From: Acidimicrobiales bacterium
GTDB taxonomy: Bacteria; Actinomycetota; Acidimicrobiia; Acidimicrobiales; Bin134
DNA length: 64,000 bases
Assembly (NCBI GenBank): GCA_963663255.1
Contig: OY760141.1
Span: 1,541,295-1,605,294, forward strand
Reading direction: 5' to 3'
Shown: piece by piece, positions 24,144 through 59,016 of the stretch
How positions within the stretch are numbered: position 1 is the stretch's first letter
Layout: the number at the start of each line of letters is the position of its first letter
Made by a program: the position numbers and the translations under genes
Notes under the pieces: model-generated
Databases searched by the model: none
Told to the model about the DNA's origin: nothing
The model's input: the letters and a program-made list of their open reading frames with translations, nothing else

Positions 24144-26959
24144 CTCTAGCCGTCTGGATCACCACTCAGATCGCATTCAACGGTCTAGTGCAGGGAATGG
24201 TCTATGGCCTCTTGGCCATGACCATCGTTCTGATCTACCGGTCGAGCAAGGTGATCAACTTCGCAGTGGGGGCCATGGGGCTAATCGGCTCGGGCCTGCT
24301 GGTGCTCCTCAATGTGCGGTTCGGCGTGCCCTATTGGGTCTCACTGGCCATCGCGCTGGCCGCCGGCCTTTTCTATGGCGTCGTCATCGAATTGGCCGTA
24401 GTGCGGCGACTGTTCCAGGCGCCTCGGGTGATCTTGCTGGTGGCGACCATCGGGATCAGCCAGCTCAGTCAGGCCATTTTGATCGCCTATCCCGAAATCA
24501 AGGGCCGGGCCCCATACCCGCTGCCGGTGGACGGTCTGTGGGAGATCGGTGATCTTCGGATCAAGAGCTCGCAACTGACGGTGGTCATCGTGACTCCTTT
24601 GATCGCCATTGCATTGGGCTGGTTCCTAAACCGGACGCTGATTGGAAGGGTGATCCGGGCGTCTGCCACCAATCCTGATCTGGCTCGCCTGCGTGGGGTG
24701 AACCCCAAGAAGGTCTCTACCGTGGTGTGGGGGATAGCCGGCGGCGTGGGCACGGTTTCGATGATGTTGGTCGGCGGGGTGGATGGATCGGCGGCGAATC
24801 TGAGCCACCTCGGTCCCACAACTTTGCTTCGTGCTCTAGTGGCGGCCCTCATCGCCCGATTCACGTCTTTCCGGATGGCGCTGCTCATCGGTGTGGTAAT
24901 CGGCTTGGCCGAGGGCATTGTGCGCTTCAACTTCTTGGACACGCCGGGGCTGATCGACGCCCTGTTGCTGCTCGCCGTCATCGCTGCGGTGGCTACGGTG
25001 GTGCGAGAGCGCGAATCCGGCATCTTTGTGTTCAACCCCAAAGTCGACGCCATGCCCGAGCGGCTTCAGGCCATCTGGTGGGTGCGCCACCTCAACCGCA
25101 TCGCCATGTTGATCCCGTTGGGGTTGGCCATCGCCTTGCCGTTTGTGTTCACCAGAGCTTCTCAGCATGTGCTGTACGCGTCCATCGCAGGGTTCACCAT
25201 CTGTGCGCTGTCGTTGACCGTTCTCACCGGGTGGGCTGGTCAGCTTTCTCTAGGCCAGATGTCATTTGCGGGGGTCGGCGCTCTGCTGGCGGCGGCCTTT
25301 TCCCGGGGTATGACCATCGACTGGTCGATCGGCACCAGCCAGTTCATCTACATCCGCTTCGAACCGTTCCCCTATGCGTGGTCGATTGTGGTGGCCATGC
25401 TCATCACCGCGGTCTTGGCCGCAGCCATAGGCTCCGGCGCGCTACGCATCAGCGGACTGCTGCTGGCCGTCAGCACTTTCGCCTTCGCCGTGGCCGCGGC
25501 CAGCTACCTCTACCGCCTGCAAATGTTGTCCGACGGCAATGGCACATTTGTCTTGTTCCGGCGGGGATCGATCTTCGGCCTCGATCTCGACAACAACCGC
25601 ACCTTCTATTTCGTGGTCCTTGCGGCTTTGGCCCTTGTCTTGGCGGTGCTAGGCCGGCTGCGCCGCAGTTCAGTGGGCCGGGTGACGCTGGCGGTGCGCG
25701 ACAACGATGTCTCCGCAGCCGCCTACACCATTCGCCCAGCAGTGGTGAAGCTGCGCTCGTTCGCCTTATCGGGCGCCATTGCCGCATTGGGCGGAGCTCT
25801 CTTGGCCGGGGTCGCCCAGCGCATGTCATTCGGTGATGGCCGGTTCTTGGTGGAGGGTTCGTTGATGCTGGTGGCGATGATCGTCATTGGCGGGATGGGA
25901 TCGTTGGGAGGAGCGGTCATCGGCGCCATCTGGGTGGTCGGCCTGCCGGCAATCGCCCCCGGCAACGAACTTGTTCCCCTGCTGACTTCCAGCATCGGTC
26001 TTCTGGTTCTGCTGCTGTACTTCCCCGGCGGTCTGGTCCACGTTCTGCACCGGGTGCGCGGCGCTATCTACCGCCGGCTTGAGAGAAGGCTGCCTCCGGT
26101 TCAAAAGGCCGCGGTCGATGCGCCAGCTTCGGCCAAGATCGAACGGGAAAGCACTGAAGAGCACCCGGTGCCGCTGCGGACCCACGACGTCGAGGTGTCC
26201 TTCGGGGGGCTCAAAGCCAACGATGGCATCTCCATCGAAGTGCGGGCCAACGAGGTGGTCGGGCTAATCGGGACCAACGGCGCGGGCAAGACCACATTGA
26301 TGAACGCCATCGGGGGGTTTGTGGCGTCCTCGGGTCAAGTGGAGCTGTTGGGAGAGGAAGTATCCCGGAAGGCTCCGGCTCAACGGGCCCGCTTGGGACT
26401 GGGCCGATCGTTCCAAGCCGCCGCCCTGTTTCCTGAACTCACCGTCCGCGAGTCGGTGCTGGTCGCTCTGGAAGCTCGTGGGCGCACCGGAATGATCGAG
26501 ACAATGGTGTTCTCGCCTCGCACCGCAGCCCGGGCCCGGGTCCGGCGCAGCGAGTCTGCTGAGCTAGTGGATTTCCTCGGACTGGGCCGCTACGCCGACA
26601 AGCCGATCTCTGACCTGTCCACCGGCACCCGGCGCATTGTCGAGTTGGCCGGGCTCTTGGCATTGGGGGCCCGTGTGTTGTGCCTCGATGAACCCACTGC
26701 CGGGATCGCCCAGCGGGAAGCCGAAGCCATGGGCCCGCTGTTGTTGCAGATCCGCAAAGAGCTTCAGGCTGCCATGATCATCATCGAACACGACATGCCC
26801 CTCATCATGGGCATGAGCGACCGCGTCTACTGCCTGGAGCTGGGCAAGGTGATCGCCGAGGGCGACCCCGCCTCGGTCCGCAATGATCCCCTGGTGATCG
26901 CCAGCTATCTGGGCATGGATGAGCGGGCCATCCAGCGCAGCGGCAAAGCCAGCCACTAA
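24140..26959 (+). CDS. Fusion protein: LivH-like permease + LivM-like permease + LivG-type ABC ATPase
   Basis: ATG 24140 overlaps the upstream stop (ATGA). Two successive polytopic permease regions are followed by Walker A GTNGAGKTT, LSTGTRRIVELA, Walker B VLCLDEPTAGIA and IIIEHDM. Confidence 0.85.
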   Translation: MTLAVWITTQIAFNGLVQGMVYGLLAMTIVLIYRSSKVINFAVGAMGLIGSGLLVLLNVRFGVPYWVSLAIALAAGLFYGVVIELAVVRRLFQAPRVILLVATIGISQLSQAILIAYPEIKGRAPYPLPVDGLWEIGDLRIKSSQLTVVIVTPLIAIALGWFLNRTLIGRVIRASATNPDLARLRGVNPKKVSTVVWGIAGGVGTVSMMLVGGVDGSAANLSHLGPTTLLRALVAALIARFTSFRMALLIGVVIGLAEGIVRFNFLDTPGLIDALLLLAVIAAVATVVRERESGIFVFNPKVDAMPERLQAIWWVRHLNRIAMLIPLGLAIALPFVFTRASQHVLYASIAGFTICALSLTVLTGWAGQLSLGQMSFAGVGALLAAAFSRGMTIDWSIGTSQFIYIRFEPFPYAWSIVVAMLITAVLAAAIGSGALRISGLLLAVSTFAFAVAAASYLYRLQMLSDGNGTFVLFRRGSIFGLDLDNNRTFYFVVLAALALVLAVLGRLRRSSVGRVTLAVRDNDVSAAAYTIRPAVVKLRSFALSGAIAALGGALLAGVAQRMSFGDGRFLVEGSLMLVAMIVIGGMGSLGGAVIGAIWVVGLPAIAPGNELVPLLTSSIGLLVLLLYFPGGLVHVLHRVRGAIYRRLERRLPPVQKAAVDAPASAKIERESTEEHPVPLRTHDVEVSFGGLKANDGISIEVRANEVVGLIGTNGAGKTTLMNAIGGFVASSGQVELLGEEVSRKAPAQRARLGLGRSFQAAALFPELTVRESVLVALEARGRTGMIETMVFSPRTAARARVRRSESAELVDFLGLGRYADKPISDLSTGTRRIVELAGLLALGARVLCLDEPTAGIAQREAEAMGPLLLQIRKELQAAMIIIEHDMPLIMGMSDRVYCLELGKVIAEGDPASVRNDPLVIASYLGMDERAIQRSGKASH

Positions 26960-34555: not shown

Positions 34556-35737
34556 TCAAAAAACGATCGGCACCGAGGCGTAGCCCTGTTGGAATGAGCC
34601 GGGCAGGCGGACCACCTCGTCAGCGGGCACTTCGAAGTCGGGGATGCGGGCCAGGGCTTCTTCTATGATGACCCGGCCCTCCAGGCGGGCCAGATGGGCG
34701 CCGATGCAGTAGTGCAATCCGTGGCCGAAGCCGAGCTGGCGGGGCGGGCGCCGGTGGATGTCGAAGCTCTCGGAGTCAGCGCCGAACTCCCGCTCGTCGC
34801 GGTTGGCCGACTGGTACAGCAGAAACACCCGGTCGCCGGGGGTCATCTCCTGGCCGCCGATCACCGTGGGTCGGCTCACCGTGCGGCCCAAATGCTGGAT
34901 GGGCACTTCTAGGCGCAGCATCTCCTCGAAAGCGCCCCCGCTGAGCGAAGGATCTTTAGCCAGGGCGGCCCGCTGGTCGCCGTCGGCGGCCAGGTGGATG
35001 AAGCCGCCGCCCATCACCTTGGGGGTGGTCTCCACCCCGCCGGTGAACAGGGTTGAGAGTTGGATGGCGGCGTCCTCGTCGTCGAAGGGATGACCCAGCA
35101 CATCCACCCCCAGCAGGGCTTCGATGTACTCCGGGCATTCTCCAGCCCGCTGTTTGGCCACGAAGCTGCACAAGTACTCTTGAATCTTGGCTCGGGCCGC
35201 GGGGGCGCGGTCGTCGTAGCGCATGGTCTGGTTGGCGTAGTCCACCAGCTTCTCCCCGTCGACAAAGGGGAAACCCAGCACCAGCGAGGTGCCGGCCACC
35301 GACACCGGCGAGGCCAGCTCGGTGACAATGTCGAGCCGCCCCCGTTCCAGACCGGCCTCCACGCAATCGGCCGCCACCCGGCGCAGCTCGGCCTCCAGCT
35401 CGGCCACCGGGCGGGGGCGCAGCGGGGGATAGAGGATCTTGCGGATCTGGGTGTGAGCCGGCGGGTCCATCTGGGAGAAGCTGAGGAACTGCCCCACCGG
35501 CAGGGGCCCCAGTTCGGCTGATGCTGGCTGATGCACCTGGTCTCGCAGGAAAACCGGCCCTTCCACAATGGTGAACGATTCCCGGTCACAACTCACCTCC
35601 CACAGCTCGGCGAACCGGGGCAGCGCCCAACCGTGATACTGCTCCAGTCGATGCACCCCGCCCGCCTCCCGCAACTCCCGATAGATCGGGAGCGGATCAG
35701 TGGCCACCTCAAGAGAGAACGGGTCGTATTCCGTCAT
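34556..35737 (-). CDS. Cytochrome P450
   Basis: P450 homology starts at MTEYDPFSLEV (ATG 35737). EEMLRLE (ExxR) and heme loop FGHGLHYCIGAHLAR. The longer ORF up to 36529 is an antisense shadow of the cyclase gene. Confidence 0.9.
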   Translation of the reverse strand: MTEYDPFSLEVATDPLPIYRELREAGGVHRLEQYHGWALPRFAELWEVSCDRESFTIVEGPVFLRDQVHQPASAELGPLPVGQFLSFSQMDPPAHTQIRKILYPPLRPRPVAELEAELRRVAADCVEAGLERGRLDIVTELASPVSVAGTSLVLGFPFVDGEKLVDYANQTMRYDDRAPAARAKIQEYLCSFVAKQRAGECPEYIEALLGVDVLGHPFDDEDAAIQLSTLFTGGVETTPKVMGGGFIHLAADGDQRAALAKDPSLSGGAFEEMLRLEVPIQHLGRTVSRPTVIGGQEMTPGDRVFLLYQSANRDEREFGADSESFDIHRRPPRQLGFGHGLHYCIGAHLARLEGRVIIEEALARIPDFEVPADEVVRLPGSFQQGYASVPIVF

Positions 35738-35755
35738 TGTGATAGAGACTGCCTT

Positions 35756-36694
35756 ATGGGACTGAGTGACCGCACGCCGCCAACCGCTGAAGAGTACGCC
35801 GCTTACCGGGAGCGGTTCTGCAACTGGGGCCGCTGGGGGGACGACGACGAGTTGGGCACCCTCAACCACATCACCCCCGATGCCCGTCGGGGCGCGGCCG
35901 CCCTGGTGCAGACGGGAGAAGCGGTGTCGATGAGCCGGCCCATCGACACCCACGCTGGCCCGGCCAACCCCTATCCGGCCCACCACTTCGTGGGCGCCGG
36001 GGACTCGGGGGCGATGGCCGACTACTTCGGGATGTTCATCCACGGCTTCGTGCAGACCCACATCGACGCCCTGTGCCACTTGTCGGTGGACGGTGGGGGC
36101 AAGTTCTGGAACGGCAAGGAGTTCGCCAAGCCCCCCATGCCCGCCGAGCACACCGGCACCATCGACTACTGGCGCGACGGCATCGTCACCCGGGGGGTCC
36201 TCTACGACGTCCCCCGATTTAGGGGCACCGACTACGTGGCGCCGGGTGAGCCGGTTCATGGTTGGGAGCTGGCCGACGTGGCTGCGGCACAGGGAATCGA
36301 GCCCCGGCCCGGCGATGCGGTGTGCATCCGCAGCGGCATGGACGTGTACTTCGAGAAGACCGGCACCTCGCAGGGGATGGGATCCAATGCCGGGGTCCAC
36401 GCCTCGGCCATCGAATTCCTCTATGAGACCGACGCCTCCTGTTTGACCTGGGACTTCCAGGACGCACCCCAAGACGACCAGGGCATCCCCAATCCGCTGC
36501 CCATTCGCATCGCGCTGCACGTCCACCACATCCTGTTGCCGTATATGGGCATGCCCATTATCGACAACGCCGATTTCGAGGCGGCGGCTGCCCGCTGCGC
36601 CGAGTTGGGCCGGTGGGAATTCCAGTACGTATGCGCTCCGCTGGTGTTACGCTACGGCACCGGTTCGCCGGTGAATCCCCTGGCAATTTTGTAG
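35756..36694 (+). CDS. Cyclase-family (kynurenine formamidase-like) metal-dependent hydrolase
   Basis: MGLSDRTPP...NWGRWGDDDELGTLNHI N-terminus and HGFVQTHIDALCH (HxxxxTHxDAxxH-like metal motif). Confidence 0.75.
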   Translation: MGLSDRTPPTAEEYAAYRERFCNWGRWGDDDELGTLNHITPDARRGAAALVQTGEAVSMSRPIDTHAGPANPYPAHHFVGAGDSGAMADYFGMFIHGFVQTHIDALCHLSVDGGGKFWNGKEFAKPPMPAEHTGTIDYWRDGIVTRGVLYDVPRFRGTDYVAPGEPVHGWELADVAAAQGIEPRPGDAVCIRSGMDVYFEKTGTSQGMGSNAGVHASAIEFLYETDASCLTWDFQDAPQDDQGIPNPLPIRIALHVHHILLPYMGMPIIDNADFEAAAARCAELGRWEFQYVCAPLVLRYGTGSPVNPLAIL

Positions 36695-36781: not shown

Positions 36782-39226
36782 GTGATGGCTGATCTCGGCG
36801 ATCGGGCCCAGGTGGTGATCGTCGGTGGTGGGATCGTCGGCTGTTCTATCGCGTACCACCTGACCCGTCGCGGGGTGACCGATGTGCTGCTCATCGAGCA
36901 GGGGCAGCTCACCAGCGGCACCACCTGGCACGCCGCAGGGCTGGTCAGCCAGCTCAAGTCCAGCCACAGCCTGACCCGGCTGGCCACCTACTCGGCCCGG
37001 CTGTTCGAAGACCTCGAAGCCGAGACCGGCCAGGCCACCGGCTACCGGGCTCCGGGGTCTATCTCGGTGGCCGCCGACAACGAACGCTGGGAGGAGCTGC
37101 TGCGGGGTATGTCGATGGCCCGTACCGTGGGGGTGGACATACGCGAGATCGAGCTCGACGAGGCCCGCGAGCTGTGCCCGCTGCTCAACATCGACGACCT
37201 GGTGGGCGCGCTGTTCATTCCCCAAGACGGGATCACGTCGCCGGTGGACACCACCATGGCCCTGGCCAAGGGGGCTCGGGCCCGAGGCGCTCGCATCGTG
37301 CAGGGCATCGCGGTCACCGGCGTGGTCGTGGAGGATGGCCGCGCGGTGGGGGTGGACACCGAAGCGGGCCGGGTGGAGGCCGAGACCGTGGTGTTGGCCG
37401 CCGGCATCTGGACCCGCCAGCTGGCCGCCACCGCGGGGGTGAGCGTGCCGGTGCAGGCCTGCGAGCACTTCTACATCGTCACCGAGCCCATCGAGGGCGT
37501 GCAGCCCAACATGCCCACGGTGCGCGACCCGTCTAACTACACCTACTTCAAGGAGGAGACCGGCAAGGTCATGGCCGGCTTCTTCGAGCCTCGGGGCAAG
37601 GTCTGGAACCTCGACGGCATTCCCCGAGACCTCCAGTTCAAGACTCTGCCCGAAGACTGGGACCACGTCGGGCCGATCTTCGAGCGGGCCATACACCGCA
37701 TGCCGGTGCTGGGGGAGGCGGGCTTGCAGCTGTTCTTCAACGGCCCCGAGGCCTTCACCCCCGACGGGGTGTACTACCTGGGCGAGTCGCCCGAGGTGGA
37801 CGGCTGCTTTGTAGCCGCCGGATTCAACTCGGTGGGCATCCAGTCGGCGGGCGGTGTGGGCTGGGCGTTGGCCGACTGGATCGTCGATGACCACCCGCCC
37901 ATGGACCTCTCGGCGGTGGACATCCGTCGCTCGTTCGGATTCCAGTGCGAGCCCGCCTACCTCGACGCCCGCATTCCCGAGAGCCTGGGACTGCTGTATG
38001 CCATGCACTGGCCGTTTAGGCAGTATGAGACGGCCCGGGGCATCCGGATGTCGCCGCTGCACGACCGCATCGACGCGGCCGGGGCAGTGTTCGGCGAGGT
38101 CGGGGGGTGGGAGCGGCCCAACTGGTTCGCCGAGTCTGGTCAAGAAAGGGAGTACCACTACAGCTGGGGACCGCAGAACTGGTTCAAGGCCAGCGGGGTC
38201 GAGTGTGAGGCGGTCCGCAACGCGGTGGGCCTGTTCGACCAGACCTCGTTCGCCAAGTTCACCGTGGAGGGCCCCGACGCCATGGCCTTGCTCAACTGGA
38301 TCAGCGGCAACGAGGTGGATGTGCCGGTGGGCCAGTCGGTCTACTCCCAGTGGCTGAACGACCACGGCGGAATCGAGGCCGACCTCACCATGACCCGCCG
38401 GGGCGAGAACTCCTATTGGGTGGTCACCTCCGCGGGCACTGCTACCCGCGACTGGGCCTTGCTCAGGCGAGCCGCCCGGGGTCGCAATGTGGCCATCAGA
38501 GACGTCACTGACGATTACGCGGTGCTCGGGCTCATGGGGCCGAACTCGCGGGCGGTGCTCAGCCAGATCTGCGACACCGACCTCGGCAACGACGGCTTCC
38601 CGTTCGGCACCGCCCAAGACCTGAGCGTGGCCGGCGCCGATGTGTTGGCGCTGCGCATGACCTATGTGGGCGAGCTGGGCTGGGAGCTGTATGTGCCCCG
38701 CGACCAGGCCGTCGCCCTGTACGACGCTTTGGTTGACGCGGGCACTCCCCTAGGGCTGCGCCCCGCTGGCTACCACGCCATGAACTCGCTGCGCATGGAG
38801 GCGGGCTACTGCCATTGGGGCCACGACATAACCGACGAGGACACCCCGTTGGAGGCCGGGCTGGGGTTTGCCGTCGCTTGGGACAAAGCGGGCGGCTTCC
38901 GGGGTCGAGAGGCGCTGGCCGCCCAGCGGGAGCCGCCCCGCACCAAGCGCCTCATCAAGCTCCGCCTCGAAGACCCCGAGTGGCTGCTGTACCACGACGA
39001 GCCCATCTTTCGGGACGGCGAGATCGTGGGCCGCACCAGCAGCGGCATGTGGAGCTACACCGAGGGCCGAGCGCTGGCCATGGGCTATGTGGAATGCCCC
39101 GACGGCGTGACCAAAGACTGGCTGGAAGCCGGTCAATTCGAAATCGAGCCAGCCGGCCGCCGGATTGCGGCTACGGCGTCTCTTCGTTCGTTTTACGATC
39201 CCCGCAAAGAGCGGGTTCGACTCTGA
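36782..39226 (+). CDS. Dimethylglycine/sarcosine dehydrogenase-like FAD oxidoreductase with C-terminal GcvT (folate-binding aminomethyltransferase) domain
   Basis: 814 aa. N-terminal VVIVGGGIVGCSIAYHL (DAO fold). C-terminal FAKFTVEGPDA...LRMTYVGELGWELY GcvT-like region. The start may be ATG 36785. Confidence 0.85.
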   Translation: MMADLGDRAQVVIVGGGIVGCSIAYHLTRRGVTDVLLIEQGQLTSGTTWHAAGLVSQLKSSHSLTRLATYSARLFEDLEAETGQATGYRAPGSISVAADNERWEELLRGMSMARTVGVDIREIELDEARELCPLLNIDDLVGALFIPQDGITSPVDTTMALAKGARARGARIVQGIAVTGVVVEDGRAVGVDTEAGRVEAETVVLAAGIWTRQLAATAGVSVPVQACEHFYIVTEPIEGVQPNMPTVRDPSNYTYFKEETGKVMAGFFEPRGKVWNLDGIPRDLQFKTLPEDWDHVGPIFERAIHRMPVLGEAGLQLFFNGPEAFTPDGVYYLGESPEVDGCFVAAGFNSVGIQSAGGVGWALADWIVDDHPPMDLSAVDIRRSFGFQCEPAYLDARIPESLGLLYAMHWPFRQYETARGIRMSPLHDRIDAAGAVFGEVGGWERPNWFAESGQEREYHYSWGPQNWFKASGVECEAVRNAVGLFDQTSFAKFTVEGPDAMALLNWISGNEVDVPVGQSVYSQWLNDHGGIEADLTMTRRGENSYWVVTSAGTATRDWALLRRAARGRNVAIRDVTDDYAVLGLMGPNSRAVLSQICDTDLGNDGFPFGTAQDLSVAGADVLALRMTYVGELGWELYVPRDQAVALYDALVDAGTPLGLRPAGYHAMNSLRMEAGYCHWGHDITDEDTPLEAGLGFAVAWDKAGGFRGREALAAQREPPRTKRLIKLRLEDPEWLLYHDEPIFRDGEIVGRTSSGMWSYTEGRALAMGYVECPDGVTKDWLEAGQFEIEPAGRRIAATASLRSFYDPRKERVRL

Positions 39227-39247
39227 GACTCAAGGAGCGGCCAGCCA

Positions 39248-41680
39248 ATGCGCGATGAAGCCCAGGTTGTGATCATCGGCGGCGGGGCTATGGGCGCGGG
39301 CCTGTTCTACCACTTGGCCCACGAGGGCTGGACCGACACGGTGCTGGTGGAGAAGGGCGAACTGTCGTCGGGGTCCACCTGGCACGCCGCGGGTCTAATC
39401 CCCCACTTCATCGGCAGCCTTAACATGGCCAAATGCCATGCGGTGGCCCCCGACCTCTACGCCAAGATCGAAGAAGAGACCGGGCTGGCCAGCGGCTGGC
39501 ACGGCACCGGTGCCATCCGCCTGGCGCTCGACCGCCACCAGGTGGACTGGTTCCGCTACGTCAGCGGGATGCTCGACCTGGTCGGGATCGAAAACCACCT
39601 GATCGAGCCCTCCGAGATCCTCGACCACTGGCCTTTCATGGACGTGTCCGACGTGCTGATGGGCATATGGACCCCTCACGACGGCTGGACCGACCCCTCC
39701 AGCGTCACCGCGGCCATGGTCAAAGGGGCCCGGCAGTTGGGCGGCGAGGTCTATCGCCACACGCTGGTCACCGATATGAACCAGCTCCCCGACCACCGCT
39801 GGGAGGTGATGTGCGAGGTCAAGGGCGAAACCCACTGCATTGTGGCCGAGCACGTGGTGAACGCGGCGGGGTGCTATGCCCCCCAGCTCGGTGCCATGGT
39901 GGGCCTGGACGTGCCCATCGTGTCGGTGATCCACCAGTACCTCATCACCGAGGCCATGGCCGAGATGAAGGAGCTGGGCGACTTCGACCCGCCGGTGATC
40001 CGCGACCCCCGGGCGTCGGCCTACTACCGGAGGGAGATCGACTCGCTGCTGGTCGGTCCCTATGAGCGGGAAAACGCCCAGACTTATGGGCTCGAGGGCA
40101 TCGACTGGGACAAGCACTTCTATTTGACCCCGCCCGACCTCGACCAGCTCATGCCCTGGCTGATCGAGGCTGGCAAGCGGATACCGGCCTTCTCCGACGC
40201 CGGTATCAAGACCGTAGTCAGCGGGCCGATCACCCATACTCCCGACTCCGGATACCTCATGGGACCGGCGCCCGGCCTGCGCAACTACTGGCTGTGCGCG
40301 GGTGCTTCCATAGGGATCACCCAGGGTCCGGGCGCGGGCAAGTATCTGGCCCAGTGGATGGCGCACGGCCAGACCGAGATCAACGTGGCCGAGATGGATC
40401 CCCGCCGTTTCGGCGACCACTGCGGCCCTACCGGGCGGTACGCCATAGAGAAGGCCATCGACGAATTCCACGAGATGTACGCCACCCGCCTGCCCGGCGA
40501 GCAGCGCTTCGCTGGTCGTCCCCAAAAGACCGACCCCATCTACGACCGGCTCGACGCTAGGCAGGCGCAGTGGATGGAGATCTTCGGCTGGGAGCGCCCG
40601 CAGTACTACGGCGAGCCCGAGGCCCACACCTTCCGGCACTCCAACGCCTTCGACATCGTGGGGGCCGAGTGCAGGGCAACACGGGAGCGGGCCGGCATCG
40701 CCGATCTCACCGCCTTCTCCAAGTTCGAGGTGACTGGGGCCGACGCCGAGGTGCTGCTCGACCGTCTTACCGCCAACCGCATGCCGGCCAAAGACGGCGG
40801 GATGCGCCTGACCCACTTCTTGACAGAGCTGGGCGGCATCGAGACCGAGATGACCATCACCCGGCTGGCCCCCGACCGGTTTTACCTGAACTCGGCCATC
40901 GTCGGGCAGTTCCATGACCGGGACTGGCTGGCCCACCATGTGCAACCCGGCGAAGACGTCACCGTCACTGACAGAACTGACGACTTGGGCATCCTGGCCG
41001 TATCCGGCCCCCTTTCCCGCCAGATCCTGGGGCCCCTCACCGATGCCGAGTTGGAGGCGCCCGGATTCCGCTGGCTCACCGGTCAGGAGATCGAGGTGGC
41101 CGGGGTGCCGTGTCTGGCCCTGCGGGTGTCCTATGTGGGCGAGCTGGGCTGGGAACTGCACCACTCCCAAAAGCACACTGCCCAGCTCTACGACGCCCTG
41201 GTGGAGTCGGGCGAGCCGTTGGGCATGGTCCACTACGGCGCCTACGCCATGAACACCATGCGCATCGAGAAGGCCTACAAGGCGATGGGCTTCGAGCTCA
41301 CCACCGAGATCACTCCGGTGGAGGCCGACCTGGGCCGGTTTGTGGACTGGTCGGGCGAGTTCCAGGGCAAGAAGGCCTCCGAAGAACGGCTGGCCATGGG
41401 CGACGACATTGAGATGATCCTCGTGTACTGCGAGGTGGACACCACCGACAACGACTGCCGGGGCAACGAGCCGGTGTACGACGGCGAAGAGCTCATCGGG
41501 CTGACCACCTCGGGCACATGGGGCCACACCACCGGGCGCGGCCTGGCCTTCGTCTACGTGAAACCCCAGTACAAAGCACCGGGCACCCGATTCGAAGTGC
41601 AGCTTATGAGCGACCGCCGTCCGGCGATGGTGCTCGACGGACCCGCCTACGATCCGAACAACGAGAAACCGAGGGCTTGA
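39248..41680 (+). CDS. Second dimethylglycine/sarcosine dehydrogenase-like FAD oxidoreductase with GcvT domain (paralogue)
   Basis: 810 aa. VVIIGGGAMGAGLFYHL, FSKFEVTGADA, LRVSYVGELGWELH. Same architecture as the upstream gene but clearly diverged. Confidence 0.85.
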   Translation: MRDEAQVVIIGGGAMGAGLFYHLAHEGWTDTVLVEKGELSSGSTWHAAGLIPHFIGSLNMAKCHAVAPDLYAKIEEETGLASGWHGTGAIRLALDRHQVDWFRYVSGMLDLVGIENHLIEPSEILDHWPFMDVSDVLMGIWTPHDGWTDPSSVTAAMVKGARQLGGEVYRHTLVTDMNQLPDHRWEVMCEVKGETHCIVAEHVVNAAGCYAPQLGAMVGLDVPIVSVIHQYLITEAMAEMKELGDFDPPVIRDPRASAYYRREIDSLLVGPYERENAQTYGLEGIDWDKHFYLTPPDLDQLMPWLIEAGKRIPAFSDAGIKTVVSGPITHTPDSGYLMGPAPGLRNYWLCAGASIGITQGPGAGKYLAQWMAHGQTEINVAEMDPRRFGDHCGPTGRYAIEKAIDEFHEMYATRLPGEQRFAGRPQKTDPIYDRLDARQAQWMEIFGWERPQYYGEPEAHTFRHSNAFDIVGAECRATRERAGIADLTAFSKFEVTGADAEVLLDRLTANRMPAKDGGMRLTHFLTELGGIETEMTITRLAPDRFYLNSAIVGQFHDRDWLAHHVQPGEDVTVTDRTDDLGILAVSGPLSRQILGPLTDAELEAPGFRWLTGQEIEVAGVPCLALRVSYVGELGWELHHSQKHTAQLYDALVESGEPLGMVHYGAYAMNTMRIEKAYKAMGFELTTEITPVEADLGRFVDWSGEFQGKKASEERLAMGDDIEMILVYCEVDTTDNDCRGNEPVYDGEELIGLTTSGTWGHTTGRGLAFVYVKPQYKAPGTRFEVQLMSDRRPAMVLDGPAYDPNNEKPRA

Positions 41681-41681
41681 T

Positions 41682-43211
41682 ATGGCGCGACGTGCAGGAG
41701 GCAGGGCTGCCCGGGTGGCCATGAGGGAGGCTCCGCCCGAAGCCGACGCCCGGGCCGTTTGGCCGGGGATGCCCGGCGGTGCCTACAAGCCGCTGTCCGA
41801 AGGGCAATGCGACGATGTTTTCGAGGCATCCCTCGGGCTGCTGGCCGATCTGGGCATGGGGCAGGCCACCCCAGAGATCATCGAGGCGGTCACCGCCAAC
41901 GGGGGTCGAATGGACGACGACGACCGATTGCGGTTCCCCCCCGACCTCGTGAAGCGGATCGTGGACGGCGCCTGCAAGGAGTTCACCCTGCACGGCTTCG
42001 ACCCCGACCGGGGGGTGGAGATCGGCGGCAACCGGGTGCACTTCTGCACCAGCGGGGCCGCGGTGATGATGCTCGACCACGAGACCAAGCGCTTCCGCCC
42101 CAGCAACCTGGCCGACCTCTACGACGTGGCCCGGATTGTCGACACCCTCGACAACATCCACGTTTTCGTGCGGACTTTGGTGGCCCGCGACATGGAGACC
42201 TCCCGGGAGCTGGATATCAACACCGCCTACGCCATCGTGGCCGGCACCACCAAGCCCCTGGGGACGGCCATGTTCCAACCCGAACATGTTCACGAGTGCG
42301 TGGACCTGTTCGACATGGCGCTGGGCGCCGAGGGGGAGTTCGCCCGCCGGCCCTTCTGCATTGCCAACAACACCTTCGTGGTGCCGCCACTGCGCTACGC
42401 CGAGGATTCGGCCCTGTGCCTGATTGAACAGGCCCGCCGGGGCATGCCCATCAACCTGCTGTCGGCCGGGCAGGCCGGAGCCACCTCGCCGGCTGCGCTG
42501 GCCGGCTCGCTGGTGCAGGCCCTGGCCGAGTGCCTGGCCGGCCTCACTGCGGTGAACCTGATCGTTCCCGGCCATCCCTGCGTCATGGGCATGTGGCCGT
42601 TCGTGTCCGACCTGCGCACCGGGGCGATGAGCGGAGGCAGCGGCGAGGAGGCCATTATCAACGCGGCCGCCGCCCAAGTGGTGAACTACCTGGGCCTGCC
42701 GTCGGGGGTGGCCGCCGGCATGGCCGACTCCAAACTGCCTGACAACCAGGCCGGTGCCGAAAAGGCCAACGCCATCACCCTGGCGGCCAACGCCGGGGCC
42801 AACATGATCAATGAGACGGCCGGGATGCTGGCCAGCATCATGGCCTGCTCACTGGAGGCCTTGGTTATCGACAACGACATGCTGGGCTCCATCAACCGCA
42901 CCGTGCGGGGCATCGAGATCACCCCCGAGACGCTGTCGGCCCAAGTGATCGCCGACGTGGTGCACGGCGAGGGCCACTTCCTCGGCCAACCCCAGACCCT
43001 GTCGCTGATGCAAACCGAGTATGTCTACCCCCTCATCGGCGACCGCCTCAGCCCCGACGACTGGATCGACGCCGGTGCCCGGCTGATGGACGAAGTGGCC
43101 CACGACTACGTGACCGAAGTGCTCAGCCGCCCCAAACCCGAACACATCACCCCCCAAGCCGACGCCCGCATCCGCGAAGCCTTCCCCATCCACCTCCCCC
43201 CCATCCACTGA
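41682..43211 (+). CDS. MttB-superfamily (trimethylamine methyltransferase family) protein, non-pyrrolysine type
   Basis: Starts 1 nt after the upstream stop. N-terminus MARRAGGRAARVAMREAPP...PGMPGGAYKPLSE is typical of non-Pyl MttB homologues. 509-aa ORF with no in-frame TAG. Confidence 0.85.
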   Translation: MARRAGGRAARVAMREAPPEADARAVWPGMPGGAYKPLSEGQCDDVFEASLGLLADLGMGQATPEIIEAVTANGGRMDDDDRLRFPPDLVKRIVDGACKEFTLHGFDPDRGVEIGGNRVHFCTSGAAVMMLDHETKRFRPSNLADLYDVARIVDTLDNIHVFVRTLVARDMETSRELDINTAYAIVAGTTKPLGTAMFQPEHVHECVDLFDMALGAEGEFARRPFCIANNTFVVPPLRYAEDSALCLIEQARRGMPINLLSAGQAGATSPAALAGSLVQALAECLAGLTAVNLIVPGHPCVMGMWPFVSDLRTGAMSGGSGEEAIINAAAAQVVNYLGLPSGVAAGMADSKLPDNQAGAEKANAITLAANAGANMINETAGMLASIMACSLEALVIDNDMLGSINRTVRGIEITPETLSAQVIADVVHGEGHFLGQPQTLSLMQTEYVYPLIGDRLSPDDWIDAGARLMDEVAHDYVTEVLSRPKPEHITPQADARIREAFPIHLPPIH

Positions 43212-51188: not shown

Positions 51189-52823
51189 CTAAAGGGCACC
51201 TTCTCGCAGCTGGGCCCGGAGGTCGACCTTTCGGATCTTGCCTGAGGCGGTGCGGGGGTAGTCATCCACCCGTCGCAGATCCTCAGGCCATTTCTGGCGG
51301 GCCAGGCCGGCTTGCTCCAGATGGGGGAAGAGAGCGGGCAGGTCGATGGGGTCGGCGTCGGGCAGCAGGCGGACCACCGCGCAGGCGTGCTCGCCGAGGC
51401 GTTCGTCGGGGGCGGCCACCACCGCCACCTCGGCCACGCCGGGAACCTTGGCGATGACCTCCTCGATCTCGGCCGCCGACAGGTTCTCGCCGCCGCGGAT
51501 GATGATGTCCTTCACCCGGTCGGTGATGGTGAGGCAGCCGTGCTCGTCGACCACCCCGATGTCGCCGGTGTGATACCACCCGTCGTCGTCGAAGGCGACG
51601 TTGAGGTCGGGATTGGTGTAACCCAGGCACAGCTCGGGGCCCCGAGACACGATCTCTCCGGGCGTGCCCGCGGGCAGATCGTTGCCGTCTTCGTCCACGA
51701 TCCGCATCTCAACTCCAGGCCGGGGACGCCCGTCGGTGTTATGGCGGATCTCGGCCGGATCCTCATATCTTGAGCCGGTGATCGAGGGGTGCTCGGTGGA
51801 TCCGTAGGCCCGGATGATCTTGATGCCCAGCGACTCGGCCCGCTGGCCCACCGCCGCGGGCACCGGTGCTCCCCCCAGCCCCACGCGGGCCATCTTGACG
51901 GTGTGCTCGGGGGTGAAGTCGGGGTGGTCTAGCAGGCTGGTGAGAAAGATCGAGGCGCCCACCCCGCCGCCGATGTCGTAGGCCAGCATTACCTCAAGGG
52001 CGTGGCCCGGATCCCACCGGTCGGTCAGATGGATGTCGAAGCTGATGTACAGCGGGCCGAGCACCCCGCCCAACATCCCGGTGGCGTGGGCCACCGGCGA
52101 GCCCATCAGGTTGGGCCTTTTGCTGGTCATCCACGCTGCCATGTGCGTCAACTCGCTCAACAGGGTGCGATGGTCGTGGATGGCGCCTTTGGGATCGCTG
52201 GTGGTGCCTGAGGTATAGGCCAGCACCGCCACATCGTCGTCAGCCGGATGGGGCAGCTCGGCGGCCGGCTCGCATCCGGCCAACTCATCCCACCCGACCC
52301 GGCGCACGCCCTCGGGAGCGGGACGGTCGGCCCCGTCGCCGACCACGAGGTGAAGACGAAGGCCAATCCCCTCGGAGCGGTCGACGATGTCGGCGTAGTC
52401 CACATGGCCGTGGGCTGTCGGCGAGATGTAGGCCACCGCGCCGCACTCTTTGAGGATGAACGACACCTCCTTGCGGCCGTAGATGTGGGTGACCGGCACC
52501 AAGATGTAGCCGCCCATGACCAACCCGGCGAAGGTCACCACCGCCTCACGCCAGTTGGGGATCTGAAACGCCACCACCTCGCCCGGCTCGATGCCTTCGC
52601 GGCGCAGCAACGACACCAGCCGACGGGCTTCGGCATCGATGTCGGCGTAGGTGCCGTGCCAGTCGTGGGTGCGGGAATGGATGTGCACCGTGGCATCGGG
52701 CGCGGCGGCCAGCCACTCGGCCACCCGCCCCCCGAGAGTGGCCCCGGTCCACCACCCCTCGCTCACATAGCGCTCCTGCAAGTGGCCCGGGACGGACCGC
52801 AATGACCACCGTGTTTCGGTCAT
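51189..52823 (-). CDS. AMP-dependent acyl-CoA synthetase/ligase
   Basis: LAYTSGTTSDPKGAIH (AMP-binding motif), TGDIGVVDEHGCLTITDRVKDIIIRGGENL, and C-terminal SGKIRK. Confidence 0.9.
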   Translation of the reverse strand: MTETRWSLRSVPGHLQERYVSEGWWTGATLGGRVAEWLAAAPDATVHIHSRTHDWHGTYADIDAEARRLVSLLRREGIEPGEVVAFQIPNWREAVVTFAGLVMGGYILVPVTHIYGRKEVSFILKECGAVAYISPTAHGHVDYADIVDRSEGIGLRLHLVVGDGADRPAPEGVRRVGWDELAGCEPAAELPHPADDDVAVLAYTSGTTSDPKGAIHDHRTLLSELTHMAAWMTSKRPNLMGSPVAHATGMLGGVLGPLYISFDIHLTDRWDPGHALEVMLAYDIGGGVGASIFLTSLLDHPDFTPEHTVKMARVGLGGAPVPAAVGQRAESLGIKIIRAYGSTEHPSITGSRYEDPAEIRHNTDGRPRPGVEMRIVDEDGNDLPAGTPGEIVSRGPELCLGYTNPDLNVAFDDDGWYHTGDIGVVDEHGCLTITDRVKDIIIRGGENLSAAEIEEVIAKVPGVAEVAVVAAPDERLGEHACAVVRLLPDADPIDLPALFPHLEQAGLARQKWPEDLRRVDDYPRTASGKIRKVDLRAQLREGAL

Positions 52824-52862
52824 GGTTGCTCCTCTGGAAGAGAGCCGACGTTCACTGGATGC

Positions 52863-53882
52863 TCACTTGAGGGCGATGGGATTTATGGGCGAGCCCACCG
52901 CGCCGGGGATGTTGAGCGGCGGGGCGACCAGCATGAACTCGTAGCGGCCGTCGTCAGCGCAGTCAGCGGCCAGTTCGTCGAGCACCCAGAACTCGCCCAA
53001 AGGCAGCCCCCGGTCCACCAGTGCCCCGCAGTGGACGGGGTTCTTTCGGGCGTCTGGGTCTTCGGGTACCAGCACTTCGACGCCGATGGTGTCGGAGGCC
53101 ACCGCGGAGATGTCGTTACGGTCGCACCAGTTGAGCGCGTCCACTCCGAAACCCGGCGAGCCGCCGAAGTACTCCCCCTGCTGGTCGGGGGTGAAGGCCG
53201 GATCCCACAAGGCCATGTAGCCGGTGCGGATCAAGGCGATGTCGCCGGGCTCCACGGCAGTCCCTTGGGACTCGGCGCAGCTATCCAGCATGGCCGTGTC
53301 GATGACGGTGGCCGGCGCCAGCGGGTCTTGGCCTTCGCTACGCGCCAGGTCCAACAGCACCGCTCGGCCCACGAAGCTCTCCCGGTGATTCTCGATTCCC
53401 AGCACTGATGCGCCCCCGTAGGCGGTGACGTTGCCGGCCCAGTAGCCGTTGTACATCGTGTCCCGGTAGATCACGTGGGCGAAGCCGTCCCACTGGGTGG
53501 AGCCCTGGAGGGGCATCTGGAACATGTCGTCGTTCCACTGGAAGTCGGGGTCGGCGGCGCTATATGGGGAGCCAACCACCTGGTCGGAGCCGGACATCAA
53601 GAACCAGTGCAGCGGCGCTGGACGGGTATGGAACCGGGGGCCCTCGGCGTCGATGGGCAGGGCCAAGGAGAACACCTTGCCCGACTGGACCAGCGAGGCG
53701 GCCCGGATGCGCTGGTCGGGTCCGATGAGGTTCTGGGTGCCGCGCTGGTCGTCGTCGCCCCACCGCCCCCAGTTGTTGGGTCCATCGGGCACATAGCCGC
53801 CAACCACCTTGCCGTTGTCGTCCACGGTGTAGTCGGGGGCTGTCCAGTGCTTGGCGTAGCTGGCGTAGTCGTCTCGACCCAT
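52863..53882 (-). CDS. Cyclase-family-like protein with divergent metal motif
   Basis: NWGRWGDDDQRGTQNLI N-terminal box shared with the 35756 gene. The expected HxGTHxDxPxH region reads LQGSTQWDGFAH. AGGAGG SD upstream. Confidence 0.7.
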   Translation of the reverse strand: MGRDDYASYAKHWTAPDYTVDDNGKVVGGYVPDGPNNWGRWGDDDQRGTQNLIGPDQRIRAASLVQSGKVFSLALPIDAEGPRFHTRPAPLHWFLMSGSDQVVGSPYSAADPDFQWNDDMFQMPLQGSTQWDGFAHVIYRDTMYNGYWAGNVTAYGGASVLGIENHRESFVGRAVLLDLARSEGQDPLAPATVIDTAMLDSCAESQGTAVEPGDIALIRTGYMALWDPAFTPDQQGEYFGGSPGFGVDALNWCDRNDISAVASDTIGVEVLVPEDPDARKNPVHCGALVDRGLPLGEFWVLDELAADCADDGRYEFMLVAPPLNIPGAVGSPINPIALK

Positions 53883-53897
53883 GAGTCCTCCTAGTGG

Positions 53898-54875
53898 TCA
53901 GAGCTGGATGAGGCGGGGTGCAGTCCCGCACTCCAATAAGTGATAACCGATCTCGGTGGGGAGCGATCTGGCCGAGCCGAACAGGGTGTCGATTACCAGA
54001 GTCCGTTTCATCCAGCGGTGGAACTGGTGTTCGGCGGTGAAGCCGATCCCGGCCAGCACCTGCTGGGCGTGGGTCGCAGTGGTGAGGGCGGCCTGGCCAG
54101 CCAGCGACTTGGCCAGCGCGGCCAACATGGGGTCGGGGTCGTGGAGGCACGCTTCGGCCACCGATTCTGCACCCTCGATCAGAACCAGCGATTCGGCCAG
54201 CTTGTGGCGGATGGCTTGGAACGACGCCACAGCGCGTCCGAATTGCACGCGGTCGATGGCGTGTTGTCGGGCCTCGACCAGCATCCACCGGGCCCCGCCG
54301 ATGAGCTGATGGGCCAGTGCTGATCGGGCGGCGGCCACGGCTGCTTCCCAGGTGCCCCCCGTTGCCAGCGGTGTCAAGGCGTTGGCCGCAATCTCCCCCG
54401 ATACCTTGCGGTAGGCGTGCCCAGGGTCCACCCCTTCGGCCACGGATAAGTGGAGCAATGCGGCATCGACGGTGGCCGCTTCAGTTCCGTCGCCACTCCC
54501 CACAGCCAGCACCGCGGTGTCCGCACGGTGGACCCGGGCCGATACCAGCCCATCGATCATCACGGTGTCGCCCCGGCGCTGTGCTGGGGCGGTTGCCTGG
54601 TGGGGGGAGGGGAACACAACGCAGGTATCCGGAGAAACGGCGGTGCCCAGCGCATTGGCCACCACGTCGTCGAGCAAGCTGGCGGCCGAATTGGATTTTC
54701 CGAGGGCGCTGAATGCGGTGGCCGCCCCCTGGGTAGGGGCTGCCTCGAGTAACTCGGCCCACCCGAGGTCGCATAGCGCTTGGTCGGCCTCGCCCGGGCC
54801 GGGCGCTTCGGCCATGGCCGCCTCGAATCCGGTAGCCAGCAGCGCTAGGTCGTCGGCCCCGATGAGCTCGCTCAT
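53898..54875 (-). CDS. Acyl-CoA dehydrogenase-like protein, probable non-catalytic (beta) subunit of a heteromeric ACAD
   Basis: 325 aa. The C-terminal ACAD helical domain is retained (AIDRVQFGRAVASFQAIRHKLAE). The N-terminus is degenerate, and LFGSARS replaces the YEGT/EIQ motif. ATGA overlap with the upstream ACAD. Confidence 0.75.
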   Translation of the reverse strand: MSELIGADDLALLATGFEAAMAEAPGPGEADQALCDLGWAELLEAAPTQGAATAFSALGKSNSAASLLDDVVANALGTAVSPDTCVVFPSPHQATAPAQRRGDTVMIDGLVSARVHRADTAVLAVGSGDGTEAATVDAALLHLSVAEGVDPGHAYRKVSGEIAANALTPLATGGTWEAAVAAARSALAHQLIGGARWMLVEARQHAIDRVQFGRAVASFQAIRHKLAESLVLIEGAESVAEACLHDPDPMLAALAKSLAGQAALTTATHAQQVLAGIGFTAEHQFHRWMKRTLVIDTLFGSARSLPTEIGYHLLECGTAPRLIQL

Positions 54876-56014: not shown

Positions 56015-56034
56015 TGCTGCCAAGACGATTGACG

Positions 56035-56373
56035 TTACAGCGGTGGCTCGCGGACCATCTCCAAGTCAGCCGATCCGCTGTCGGGGACGCGGGGCTGGCG
56101 CCACGCCTCTACCGGGAACGACGCCTCGCACAAGGAGAACGCCATCAGCAGCAGATTGCGGGCGTCGTCGGGGAGATCTTGCAGGTCGAAGCGGTCGCAG
56201 TGCTCGAGGATCTCGGTCAGCCGGGGCATCATGGCGTCATAGAAGGCCTGCATCTCGTCCATCGACGAGGCCAGGCGCTTCTCGTAGCGCTCCCGCCAGG
56301 TATCGAGGGCCCAGTCGGCAAACGGGTCCAGGTCGGCGAAGCCGGGGGGAAGCGTTGCGGTGTCGCTCATCAT
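56035..56373 (-). CDS. Small acidic hypothetical protein (about 112 aa)
   Basis: Coding-like GC3 and an in-operon position. Its ATG overlaps the Rieske stop (TGATGATGA junction at 56367-56375). I recognise no motif. Confidence 0.5.
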   Translation of the reverse strand: MMSDTATLPPGFADLDPFADWALDTWRERYEKRLASSMDEMQAFYDAMMPRLTEILEHCDRFDLQDLPDDARNLLLMAFSLCEASFPVEAWRQPRVPDSGSADLEMVREPPL

Positions 56374-57683: not shown

Positions 57684-57692
57684 GGGGCCTCC

Positions 57693-58919: not shown

Positions 58920-58962
58920 CGCGGTTCCTTTCCGGATACTTGGAATGTTGTTGCGATAATAG

Positions 58963-58977
58963 GGGAATCTCATTCCC
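58963..58977. promoter_or_regulatory. Inverted repeat GGGAAT-CTC-ATTCCC in a divergent promoter region (candidate TetR operator)
   Basis: Read directly at 58963-58977, between divergent starts 58919 (-) and 59017 (+). A further GGAAT half-site lies at 58942-58946. Confidence 0.3.
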
Positions 58978-59016
58978 AGCCTAACCTTGATCCAAATTCG
59001 CACCTAGGAGGCGGCA

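Follow-up and report, generated by a model that had tools for sequence, protein, structure and literature searches.

How does an MttB-family methyltransferase turn over in a setting where no corrinoid partner is in sight? This question is raised by a 64-kb stretch of DNA from a single-contig 3.51-Mb Acidimicrobiales genome, G000 (hereafter, the window is this whole stretch, G000:C1:1541295-1605294). In the window, the genes for two flavoenzymes that resemble dimethylglycine dehydrogenase (DMGDH), here named D1 and D2, are followed by the gene for an MttB-family protein, MttB1. A first-pass annotation, made from the sequence of the window, described the three tightly packed genes as a stepwise N-demethylation module, noted that no corrinoid partner lay within the window, and left the turnover of MttB1 as an open question. 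Our analysis of the genome and its relatives revealed a complete corrinoid set located 35 to 40 kb downstream of the operon. In our view, MttB1 likely acts first, as a substrate-specific methyltransferase, in a cobalamin-dependent relay of the aerobic MtgBCD type that draws on this shared corrinoid set.

A complete corrinoid set lies outside the window

The packing and the domain content of the three genes were confirmed by open reading frame (ORF) coordinates and Pfam profiles (Table 1). All four domains score above their cutoffs in D1 (DAO, 245.7 bits; FAO_M, 53 bits; GCV_T, 283.6 bits; GCV_T_C, 67.6 bits) as well as in D2. At the D1/D2 junction, the TGA stop of D1 is followed by AGGAG placed 10 nucleotides (nt) before the ATG of D2, with a gap of 21 nt between the two genes. 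The D2/MttB1 junction reads TGAtATG, with a gap of 1 nt, and no terminator-like site was found at either junction. An alternative start for D1 is possible at the ATG at 36785 instead of the GTG at 36782. As the first-pass annotation had stated, the MttB1 frame contains no internal stop and hence no in-frame TAG. The statement that the window lacks a corrinoid partner also held: no corrinoid protein, methyl-tetrahydrofolate (methyl-THF) methyltransferase, or activase is encoded in it, and all matches in the genome to the B12-binding (PF02310), Pterin_bind (PF00809), and RACo (PF14574) profiles lie outside 1541295-1605294.

The open question itself falls once the whole genome is searched. The first-pass annotation had allowed that a corrinoid protein, MtgA, and RamA might be encoded elsewhere, and the genome-wide search found one full corrinoid set in G000, the only one, with its nearest end 34.7 kb past the MttB1 stop and 13.9 kb past the end of the window. 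The genes run in the order corrinoid protein, DUF1638 protein, PF13769 protein, pterin-binding methyltransferase, RACo-type activase, MttB2 (an MtgB-like paralogue), GFA-family protein, and IclR regulator; the corrinoid set and MttB2 are contiguous at G000 1619221-1625452. The corrinoid protein gene is 40 kb from MttB1 and not adjacent to it. By tblastn, the members of the set are the sole copies in G000, aside from their counterpart modules in a classical MetH. In total, the genome holds two MttB genes, one small corrinoid protein with the DxHxxG motif, and three DAO-GcvT fusions, namely, D1, D2, and a third DMGDH-like protein, D3. The puzzle of the missing partner is dissolved, because the limit of the 64-kb window and the scattering of the genes together explain it.

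MttB1 belongs to a separate clade with a changed active site

What kind of MttB-family protein is MttB1? It matches PF06253 (MTTB) with 359.7 bits, against a cutoff of 25, over residues 4 to 498 of 509. Scores to this profile are bimodal, with MtgB-type paralogues at 600 to 766 bits and the MttB1 clade at 300 to 365 bits. With TIGR02369, MttB1 scores 334 bits, under the cutoff of 525. Among proteins of solved structure, its best-scoring relative is Methanosarcina barkeri MttB (7xcl, 194 bits), followed by Desulfitobacterium hafniense MtgB (9yce/2qne, 177 bits), whereas the relatives of MttB2 are a Sinorhizobium protein (4yyc, 638 bits) and MtgB (401 bits). An AlphaFold2 model of MttB1, of moderate confidence (mean pLDDT, 69.9; pTM, 0.77), was matched by Foldseek to 7xcm/7xcl, 2qne/9yce, and 4yyc with TM-scores of 0.66 to 0.72 and E-values of 1e-27 to 1e-21. 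MttB1 is thus predicted to have a TIM-barrel fold with a C-terminal extension like that of solved MttB and MtgB.

In a tree of three deep groups (MtgB-like, pyrrolysine MttB, and MttB1), the MttB1 clade is separate, with support of 100/99; which two of the three groups are sisters cannot be read from the tree. Of the placement against characterized members that the first-pass annotation had proposed, the tree covers the comparison with the MtgB-like group, and MttB1 stands apart from this group as well as from the pyrrolysine group.

In D. hafniense MtgB (DhMtgB), glycine betaine is bound by Y97 and F356 through cation-pi contacts and by R312 and H348 through its carboxylate (Picking et al. 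2026, PMC13080624). The substitution R312L abolishes activity and H348E nearly abolishes it; MtcB, MtpB, MthB, and MtyB retain R312 and mostly H348, for an acidic group (PMC13080624). In pairwise and multiple alignments, Y97, R312, H348, and F356 correspond to G125, G342, E378, and I386 of MttB1. The residues at the Y97, R312, and H348 positions are invariant across about 70 clade members (G, G with Ser in 3, and E, respectively). MttB2 retains the Y, R, and H and has a Trp near the fourth position, as in 4yyc.

The comparison with pyrrolysine MttB gives a mixed pattern. The pyrrolysine column (Pyl334) holds Met347 in MttB1 and Met in 69/69 clade members, and Thr111 and Met249 are both replaced by Ala in the clade. 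Gly110, which in M. barkeri MttB hydrogen-bonds the corrin ring (PMC9842639), is kept in 69/69 members and Tyr364 in 59/69. In the Poriferisocius/Sva0996 group, Asn stands at MttB1 residue 377 (window 42810-42812), where M. barkeri MttB has the catalytic Tyr364; the next residue, Glu378, is the extra invariant Glu of the MttB1 clade. The family-wide DSK-PD-QAG-EK stretch is kept in MttB1.

Judged by these residues, MttB1 is predicted to belong neither with the pyrrolysine enzymes nor with the betaine enzymes of the MtgB type, and its pocket appears to offer no obvious partner for a carboxylate. Its active site seems to differ from that of every characterized betaine enzyme, the Eubacterium limosum members being compared by their published residues only (PMC13080624). 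The betaine-type substrate suggested in the first-pass annotation is doubtful on this account, since the carboxylate-binding residues of betaine-specific members are replaced in MttB1. The signature G125/G342/M347/E378, combined with the strict linkage to D2 described below, is a practical marker that separates the clade from true glycine betaine methyltransferases in metagenomes.

The D2-MttB1 unit is conserved and accompanies the RACo activase

Is the arrangement D1-D2-MttB1 kept in relatives? We compared 80 loci encoding MttB1-clade proteins, with adjacency judged on those that were long enough. D2 adjoins MttB1 in almost all of these, and D1 lies next to the D2-MttB1 pair in most, which supplies the survey of MttB genes with tandem DMGDH paralogues that had been proposed. 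The D2-MttB1 adjacency spans Acidimicrobiia, Alphaproteobacteria, and Gammaproteobacteria (Actinomycetota and Pseudomonadota) at 48 to 94% protein identity. Because it recurs across two phyla, the arrangement is not a matter of chance. Clustering of all ORFs in the 80 loci revealed no kept neighbor besides D2 and D1, and this clustering together with four rounds of Pfam searches revealed no conserved transporter or regulator in the flanks, where FTHFS, MTHFR, LysR, an Opp-type ABC system, and housekeeping genes occur only in scattered form. These data support the proposed N-demethylation module as a conserved unit of one MttB-type step and two steps dependent on flavin adenine dinucleotide (FAD) and THF. 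In three unrelated loci (L064, L088, and L091), the MttB1 module is joined to a corrinoid set, each time in a different gene order (Table 1).

We then asked whether the module accompanies the corrinoid machinery where the two are not joined. RACo was present in 28/28 of the genomes behind long MttB1 loci. Two larger samples were analyzed, one of 401 Acidimicrobiia genomes (evenly drawn, with completeness of at least 90%) and one of 401 Alphaproteobacteria genomes; related genomes in these counts are not independent. Among the Acidimicrobiia, MttB1 occurs in 39/401 genomes (22 genera) and RACo in 121/401, with RACo in 38/39 MttB1-positive versus 83/362 MttB1-negative genomes. The Alphaproteobacteria gave a similar picture, with the MttB1 clade in 44/401 genomes and RACo in 43/44 of these, including genomes of 1.4 to 2.0 Mb. 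Pooling both samples, RACo is present in 81/83 MttB1 carriers. The clade is found in about 10% of the sampled Acidimicrobiia and Alphaproteobacteria and also in Woeseiaceae and Granulosicoccaceae.

D2 is inherited with MttB1, and D3 with the canonical system

The best solved relatives of D1 are rat and human DMGDH (about 478 bits), and D2 matches human DMGDH with 579.5 bits. D2, the only one of these proteins inspected in this respect, keeps the covalent-FAD histidine motif STWHAAG and the His/Tyr dyad aligned to His225/Tyr259 of dimethylglycine oxidase (DMGO). Which of the three fusions travels with MttB1? In a test set of 80 Acidimicrobiia genomes that are RACo positive and MttB1 negative, D2 orthologues (at least 50% identity) were found in 0/80, with a best match of 44% and most matches at or below 39%. 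D3 orthologues were found in 64/80 (56 to 79% identity), typically a few kilobases from RACo, and D1 orthologues (at least 55% identity) in 8/80. We regard D2 as a dedicated partner of MttB1, because it is absent from all 80 genomes without MttB1 and is nearly always adjacent where MttB1 is present. D3, with the electron transfer flavoprotein (ETF), is taken to serve the canonical glycine betaine system as its DMGDH-family enzyme, because its orthologues track RACo in the absence of MttB1. D1 appears to be less exclusive to MttB1 than D2. No SoxD-type heterotetrameric sarcosine oxidase was found in G000.

Table 1. Genes of the window operon and of the corrinoid set in G000, and gene orders at informative loci in relatives (SARDH, sarcosine dehydrogenase; aa, amino acids)
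Feature	Location	Strand	Size	Domains, scores, or gene order
D1, DMGDH/SARDH-like FAD- and THF-dependent N-demethylase	window 36782..39226	+	814 aa	DAO+FAO_M+GCV_T+GCV_T_C
D2, DMGDH-like FAD- and THF-dependent N-demethylase	window 39248..41680	+	810 aa	same four domains as D1
MttB1, non-pyrrolysine MttB-superfamily methyltransferase, distinct uncharacterized clade	window 41682..43211	+	509 aa	PF06253
Corrinoid protein, MtgC-like	G000 1624754-1625452	-	233 aa	PF02310, 101 bits; GDIHDIGK (DxHxxG)
DUF1638 protein	between corrinoid protein and pterin methyltransferase			DUF1638, 103.8 bits
PF13769 protein	between corrinoid protein and pterin methyltransferase			PF13769, 62.5 bits
Pterin-binding methyltransferase, MtgD/MtgA-like	L011:17525-18427	-		Pterin_bind, 100.5 bits; NF005719, 358 bits (cutoff 259)
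RACo/RamA-type activase	L011:15465-17609	-		Fer2 (2Fe-2S, N-terminal)+RACo_linker+Raco_middle+RACo_C_ter; PF14574, 266 bits
MttB2, MtgB-like paralogue	G000 1619221-1620756	-		PF06253, 730.9 bits
D3, third DMGDH-like gene	4 kb from MttB2 cluster		843 aa	ETF genes alongside
Joined locus, Acidimicrobiales	L064	one strand		D1-D2-MttB1-CoP-DUF1638-PF13769-MtgA-RACo-MttB2 (CoP, corrinoid protein)
Joined locus, Pseudomonadota	L091			RACo-D2-MttB1-(HAD)-MttB2-CoP-DUF1638-PF13769-MtgA, then formate-THF ligase
Joined locus, Woeseiaceae	L088			MttB1-D2-D1 abutting MtgA-MTHFR-PF13769-CoP-MttB2
Extended module, Aldehydirespirator-like family	L031:50-11476, L070:1584-11497, L026:177-3335, L062:308-11470; L025 partial			divergent GS-like (GmaS?) <-> GATase (MgsA-like)-GXGXG (MgsB-like)-Glu_synthase FMN (MgsC-like)-D1-D2-MttB1

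Two modules may share one cobalamin relay

Together, the observed gene content, synteny, co-occurrence, and residue patterns suggest how MttB1 might turn over. MttB1 would dock on the single small corrinoid protein of the genome and move one methyl group from a methylated amine onto its Co(I) form. The MtgD/MtgA-like pterin-binding methyltransferase would then pass the methyl group from the corrinoid to THF, giving methyl-THF, and the RACo/RamA activase, with the DUF1638 and PF13769 proteins, would re-reduce oxidized cobalamin. The corrinoid set would be common to MttB1 and MttB2. D2, followed by D1, would oxidatively strip the remaining N-methyl groups as 5,10-methylene-THF, with the electrons going to the ETF encoded beside D3. 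Two parallel modules would in this way run on one cobalamin relay, MttB2 with D3 (and ETF) for glycine betaine and MttB1 with D2 (and D1) for another methylated amine. That MttB1 methylates the corrinoid protein of G000 is suggested indirectly by the joined loci L064, L088, and L091 and by the presence of RACo in 81/83 carriers. Its substrate is probably not glycine betaine, since MttB2, D3, and ETF would serve that route and MttB1 lacks an MtgB-type carboxylate pocket.

Several observations weigh against this assignment. The MttB1 module lies apart from the corrinoid set in most genomes, G000 included, and de novo corrin synthesis is apparently missing in G000, so that the cell must salvage its cobalamin. 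RACo was not detected in two MttB1 carriers, G138 and G698; G138, which carries three MtgB-type genes as well, is a draft in 20 contigs, and its missing RACo is likely due to an assembly gap. An MtgB-type paralogue is present in every MttB1 carrier checked, the genomes of 1.4 to 2.0 Mb included, and the link to RACo is therefore not attributable to MttB1 alone. Finally, the closeness of D2 to genuine DMGDH fits dimethylglycine, and hence glycine betaine, equally well.

Could MttB1 instead be a second methyltransferase for glycine betaine, or for a related carboxylated betaine, that binds its substrate in another mode? D2 would then act as the DMGDH and D1 as the sarcosine dehydrogenase, and the shared corrinoid set would still be used. 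The score of D2 to human DMGDH (579 bits) and its retained catalytic and flavinylation residues are what such a route would predict. With no SoxD-type oxidase and only three DAO-GcvT enzymes in the genome, D1 and/or D2 may finish glycine betaine breakdown, and D1 orthologues occur in some MttB1-less genomes, as for a general sarcosine enzyme. However, the four DhMtgB contact positions are changed in MttB1 (to G, G, E, and I), including a Glu at the very position where H348E is nearly inactive, whereas MttB2, which resembles 4yyc and MtgB, retains the Y, R, and H. Moreover, it is D3 (64/80) and not D2 (0/80) that travels with the canonical MtgB/RACo cluster, and a second route for glycine betaine would be superfluous. 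On balance, we consider this explanation unlikely.

A role for MttB1 without any corrinoid is very improbable, whether by direct methyl transfer to THF or as a substrate-binding or structural subunit of a fixed D2-MttB1 complex. Such a role would fit the strict co-inheritance and translational coupling of D2 and MttB1 (1-nt gap), the distance between the module and any corrinoid gene in most genomes, and active-site residues unlike those of all characterized members. It is at odds with the presence of RACo in 81/83 sampled carriers, with the three independent fusions to a corrinoid set, and with the retention of both the DSK-PD-QAG-EK stretch and the corrin-contacting Gly110. To our knowledge, no MttB-family member acts without a corrinoid. 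That the adjacency is merely positional, with D1 and D2 being ordinary dimethylglycine and sarcosine dehydrogenases that have no tie to the MttB gene, is scarcely credible given that the D2-MttB1 pair is kept across two phyla at 48 to 94% identity while other neighbors change, that D2 orthologues are absent from 80 MttB1-less genomes having the canonical system, and that gaps of 21 and 1 nt with no terminator-like site at either junction join the three genes.

Substrate and regulation of the MttB1 module

If MttB1 feeds the shared relay with a substrate other than glycine betaine, what might this substrate be? The module carries an upstream extension of gmaS-mgsABC-like genes in a single Acidimicrobiia family (Aldehydirespirator-like; Table 1). 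We take these GS-like and MgsABC-like genes to be the gamma-glutamylmethylamide and N-methylglutamate genes for monomethylamine. Together with the residues shared with the pyrrolysine enzyme, the extension is a weak hint of trimethylamine or another non-carboxylated methylamine. It comes from a single lineage, whose genomes also hold a SoxD/MgdB-type gene 30 to 40 kb away, and neither MgsA nor MgsB was found in G000. A replacement of MgdABCD (the N-methylglutamate route) by D1 was also considered and is not compelling, given the SoxD/MgdB-type gene kept in the extended genomes and the lack of MgsA and MgsB in G000.

A more specific proposal is that the proteins of the MttB1 clade act, without pyrrolysine but with a corrinoid, as methyltransferases on a carboxylate-free methylamine, for which trimethylamine and choline or a similar cation are candidates. 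The loss of R312 and H348, the shared Gly110 and mostly shared Tyr364, the top score of MttB1 to the pyrrolysine trimethylamine enzyme among solved structures, the exclusiveness of D2, and the lack of a full-length trimethylamine N-oxide demethylase (Tdm) are all in line with it. The search for Tdm in G000 yielded no full-length match; one FMO-like gene is present. For a trimethylamine-type substrate, the protonated trimethylamine would be held by the invariant Glu378. We regard this specific proposal as quite unlikely. If true, MttB1-D2-D1 would constitute an undescribed aerobic route that removes all methyl groups without Tmm, Tdm, or Dmm enzymes.

Is the window operon controlled together with the MttB2 cluster? 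D3 is preceded, at a distance of about 100 nt, by a perfect IclR-type palindrome, GTTCCGCATAACGGAAC (L011:6976-6992; G000 1612270), and the interval separating the IclR gene from GFA/MttB2 holds a near-identical palindrome, GTTCCGCAATGCGGAAC (L011:13426-13442; G000 1618720). Only five GTTCCG-N4-8-CGGAAC sites occur genome-wide, and no IclR-type palindrome of the form GTTCCGCA..CGGAAC was found upstream of D1, that is, of the window operon. Because of this absence, the window operon is seemingly regulated apart from MttB2 and D3. Nothing in G000 thus points to one regulon that would cover both the window operon and the MttB2 cluster. Elsewhere around the corrinoid set, L012:849-1086 (G000 about 1626143-1626380) holds about two tandem copies of a 111-bp unit (85 to 93% matches), several hundred bases upstream of the gene for the corrinoid protein.

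Relation to known systems

To what extent is this kind of system already known? The aerobic bacterium Ruegeria pomeroyi demethylates glycine betaine via MtgB (pfam06253), MtgC, and MtgD, on the evidence of proteomics and knockouts (Mausz et al. 2025, PMC12478193). MtgC and MtgD are needed for this demethylation, RamA and DUF1638 assist in it, and the mtgB, mtgC, mtgD, ramA, and DUF1638 genes lie at scattered sites on the R. pomeroyi chromosome; for other methylated compounds, the core has been proposed to be shared by as many as seven pfam06253 paralogues in a genome (PMC12478193). In R. pomeroyi and Phaeobacter inhibens, MtgBCD(E) is both a glycine betaine demethylase and a split methionine synthase, working with RamA, DUF1638, and MetF2 (PMC12478193).

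G000 resembles these bacteria in its aerobic way of life, its non-pyrrolysine MttB-family methyltransferase, its one small corrinoid protein and one pterin-binding methyltransferase, and its RamA/RACo activase and DUF1638 protein. Further likenesses are that the genes need not adjoin, that several pfam06253 paralogues would share the core, and that DMGDH-type genes for later steps are nearby. By analogy, the cluster outside the window is identifiable as a compact copy of the aerobic MtgBCD system. There are differences as well. The role of MtgB fits MttB2, outside the window, and not MttB1, which lacks the betaine carboxylate-binding residues and has a DMGDH-like partner of its own, D2. The aerobic MtgBCD system is a split methionine synthase with MtgE in bacteria where MetH is absent, whereas G000 keeps a classical MetH (MtgE was not searched for); because MetH is kept, the core is not needed for methionine synthesis in G000.

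With the D. hafniense MtgB/MtgC/MtgA system (PDB 2QNE and 9YCE), MttB1 shares the superfamily and fold (177 bits; TM-score, 0.67 to 0.72) and, presumably, the three-component logic with an activase. It is, however, only about 23 to 24% identical to MtgB, and D. hafniense is an anaerobe with clustered genes. The M. barkeri pyrrolysine MttB/MttC system (PDB 7XCL/7XCN) provides the best-scoring solved relative (TM-score, 0.69 to 0.71), but the host of MttB1 is an aerobic bacterium and its methyl acceptor would be THF rather than coenzyme M. In E. limosum, MtpB, MtcB, MtyB, and MthB (for proline betaine, carnitine, gamma-butyrobetaine, and phosphocholine, respectively) share one corrinoid protein, and substrate-specific MttB paralogues would likewise feed a single corrinoid protein in G000. 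Unlike these four enzymes, going by their published residues, MttB1 lacks R312 and H348 (PMC13080624). D1 and D2 have the four-domain architecture of mitochondrial and bacterial DMGDH and of Arthrobacter DMGO (5L46, 4PAA, and 1PJ5); D2 differs from these in being co-inherited with MttB1 and not with the canonical glycine betaine system.

The kind of system found here is thus already known (PMC12478193). What the present analysis adds is where the partner set lies, the finding of three fusions, counts for the co-occurrence, a residue signature for the active site of the clade, and the phyletic split between D2 and D3. In aerobic bacteria, such dispersal of the genes is now recognized as the normal state, and for this reason, finds of an "orphan MttB" call for a genome-wide check before they are treated as a puzzle. 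In sponges, sediments, and seawater, the MttB1 clade probably marks a sink for some methylated nitrogen compound that has gone unrecognized, as well as additional demand for cobalamin.

Host organism, cobalamin supply, and neighboring genes

The loci nearest to the window operon (92 to 94% protein identity) belong to metagenome-assembled genomes named Candidatus Poriferisocius sp. and "marine group Sva0996" (Acidimicrobiales, Actinomycetota), and the genus name Poriferisocius points to a sponge-associated lineage. An aerobic lifestyle of the host fits the P450s, Rieske oxygenase, GMC oxidoreductase, and PhyH-type dioxygenases that are also encoded in the window. The Acidimicrobiia relatives and these oxygen-dependent enzymes bear out the aerobic actinobacterium that the first-pass annotation had expected.

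Can such a cell supply the cobalamin? The genome carries a classical MetH (1,178-aa frame with Pterin_bind and B12-binding domains, at about G000 2585124-2586647), a B12-binding frame of mutase size, and CobS, and cobalamin use is plausible because of these genes. CobN was not found in G000, which has only three TP_methylase genes; the cell therefore probably salvages cobalamin, without de novo synthesis of the corrin ring. The search for a cobalamin riboswitch gave a single match below threshold (27.4 versus 31.5 bits), about 4 kb from CobS (G000 593143-598112).

Upstream of D1, a PF04199 cyclase gene (35531-36694) is kept in place in the nearest relatives only. An ORF at 9455-11893 (+), considered as a fourth DMGDH because of its size (812 aa), is really a double family-III CoA-transferase (CaiB/Frc-like). 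On the minus strand, a catabolic run at 51189-59003 contains an acyl-CoA synthetase, a second PF04199 cyclase, two acyl-CoA dehydrogenase-like genes, a Rieske ring-hydroxylating alpha subunit, and an amidohydrolase; a TetR gene is nearby, and the run is seemingly unrelated to D1-D2-MttB1. At 24140-26959 (+), the window encodes a 939-aa protein in which two ABC permease domains of the branched-chain type are fused with an ABC ATPase domain.

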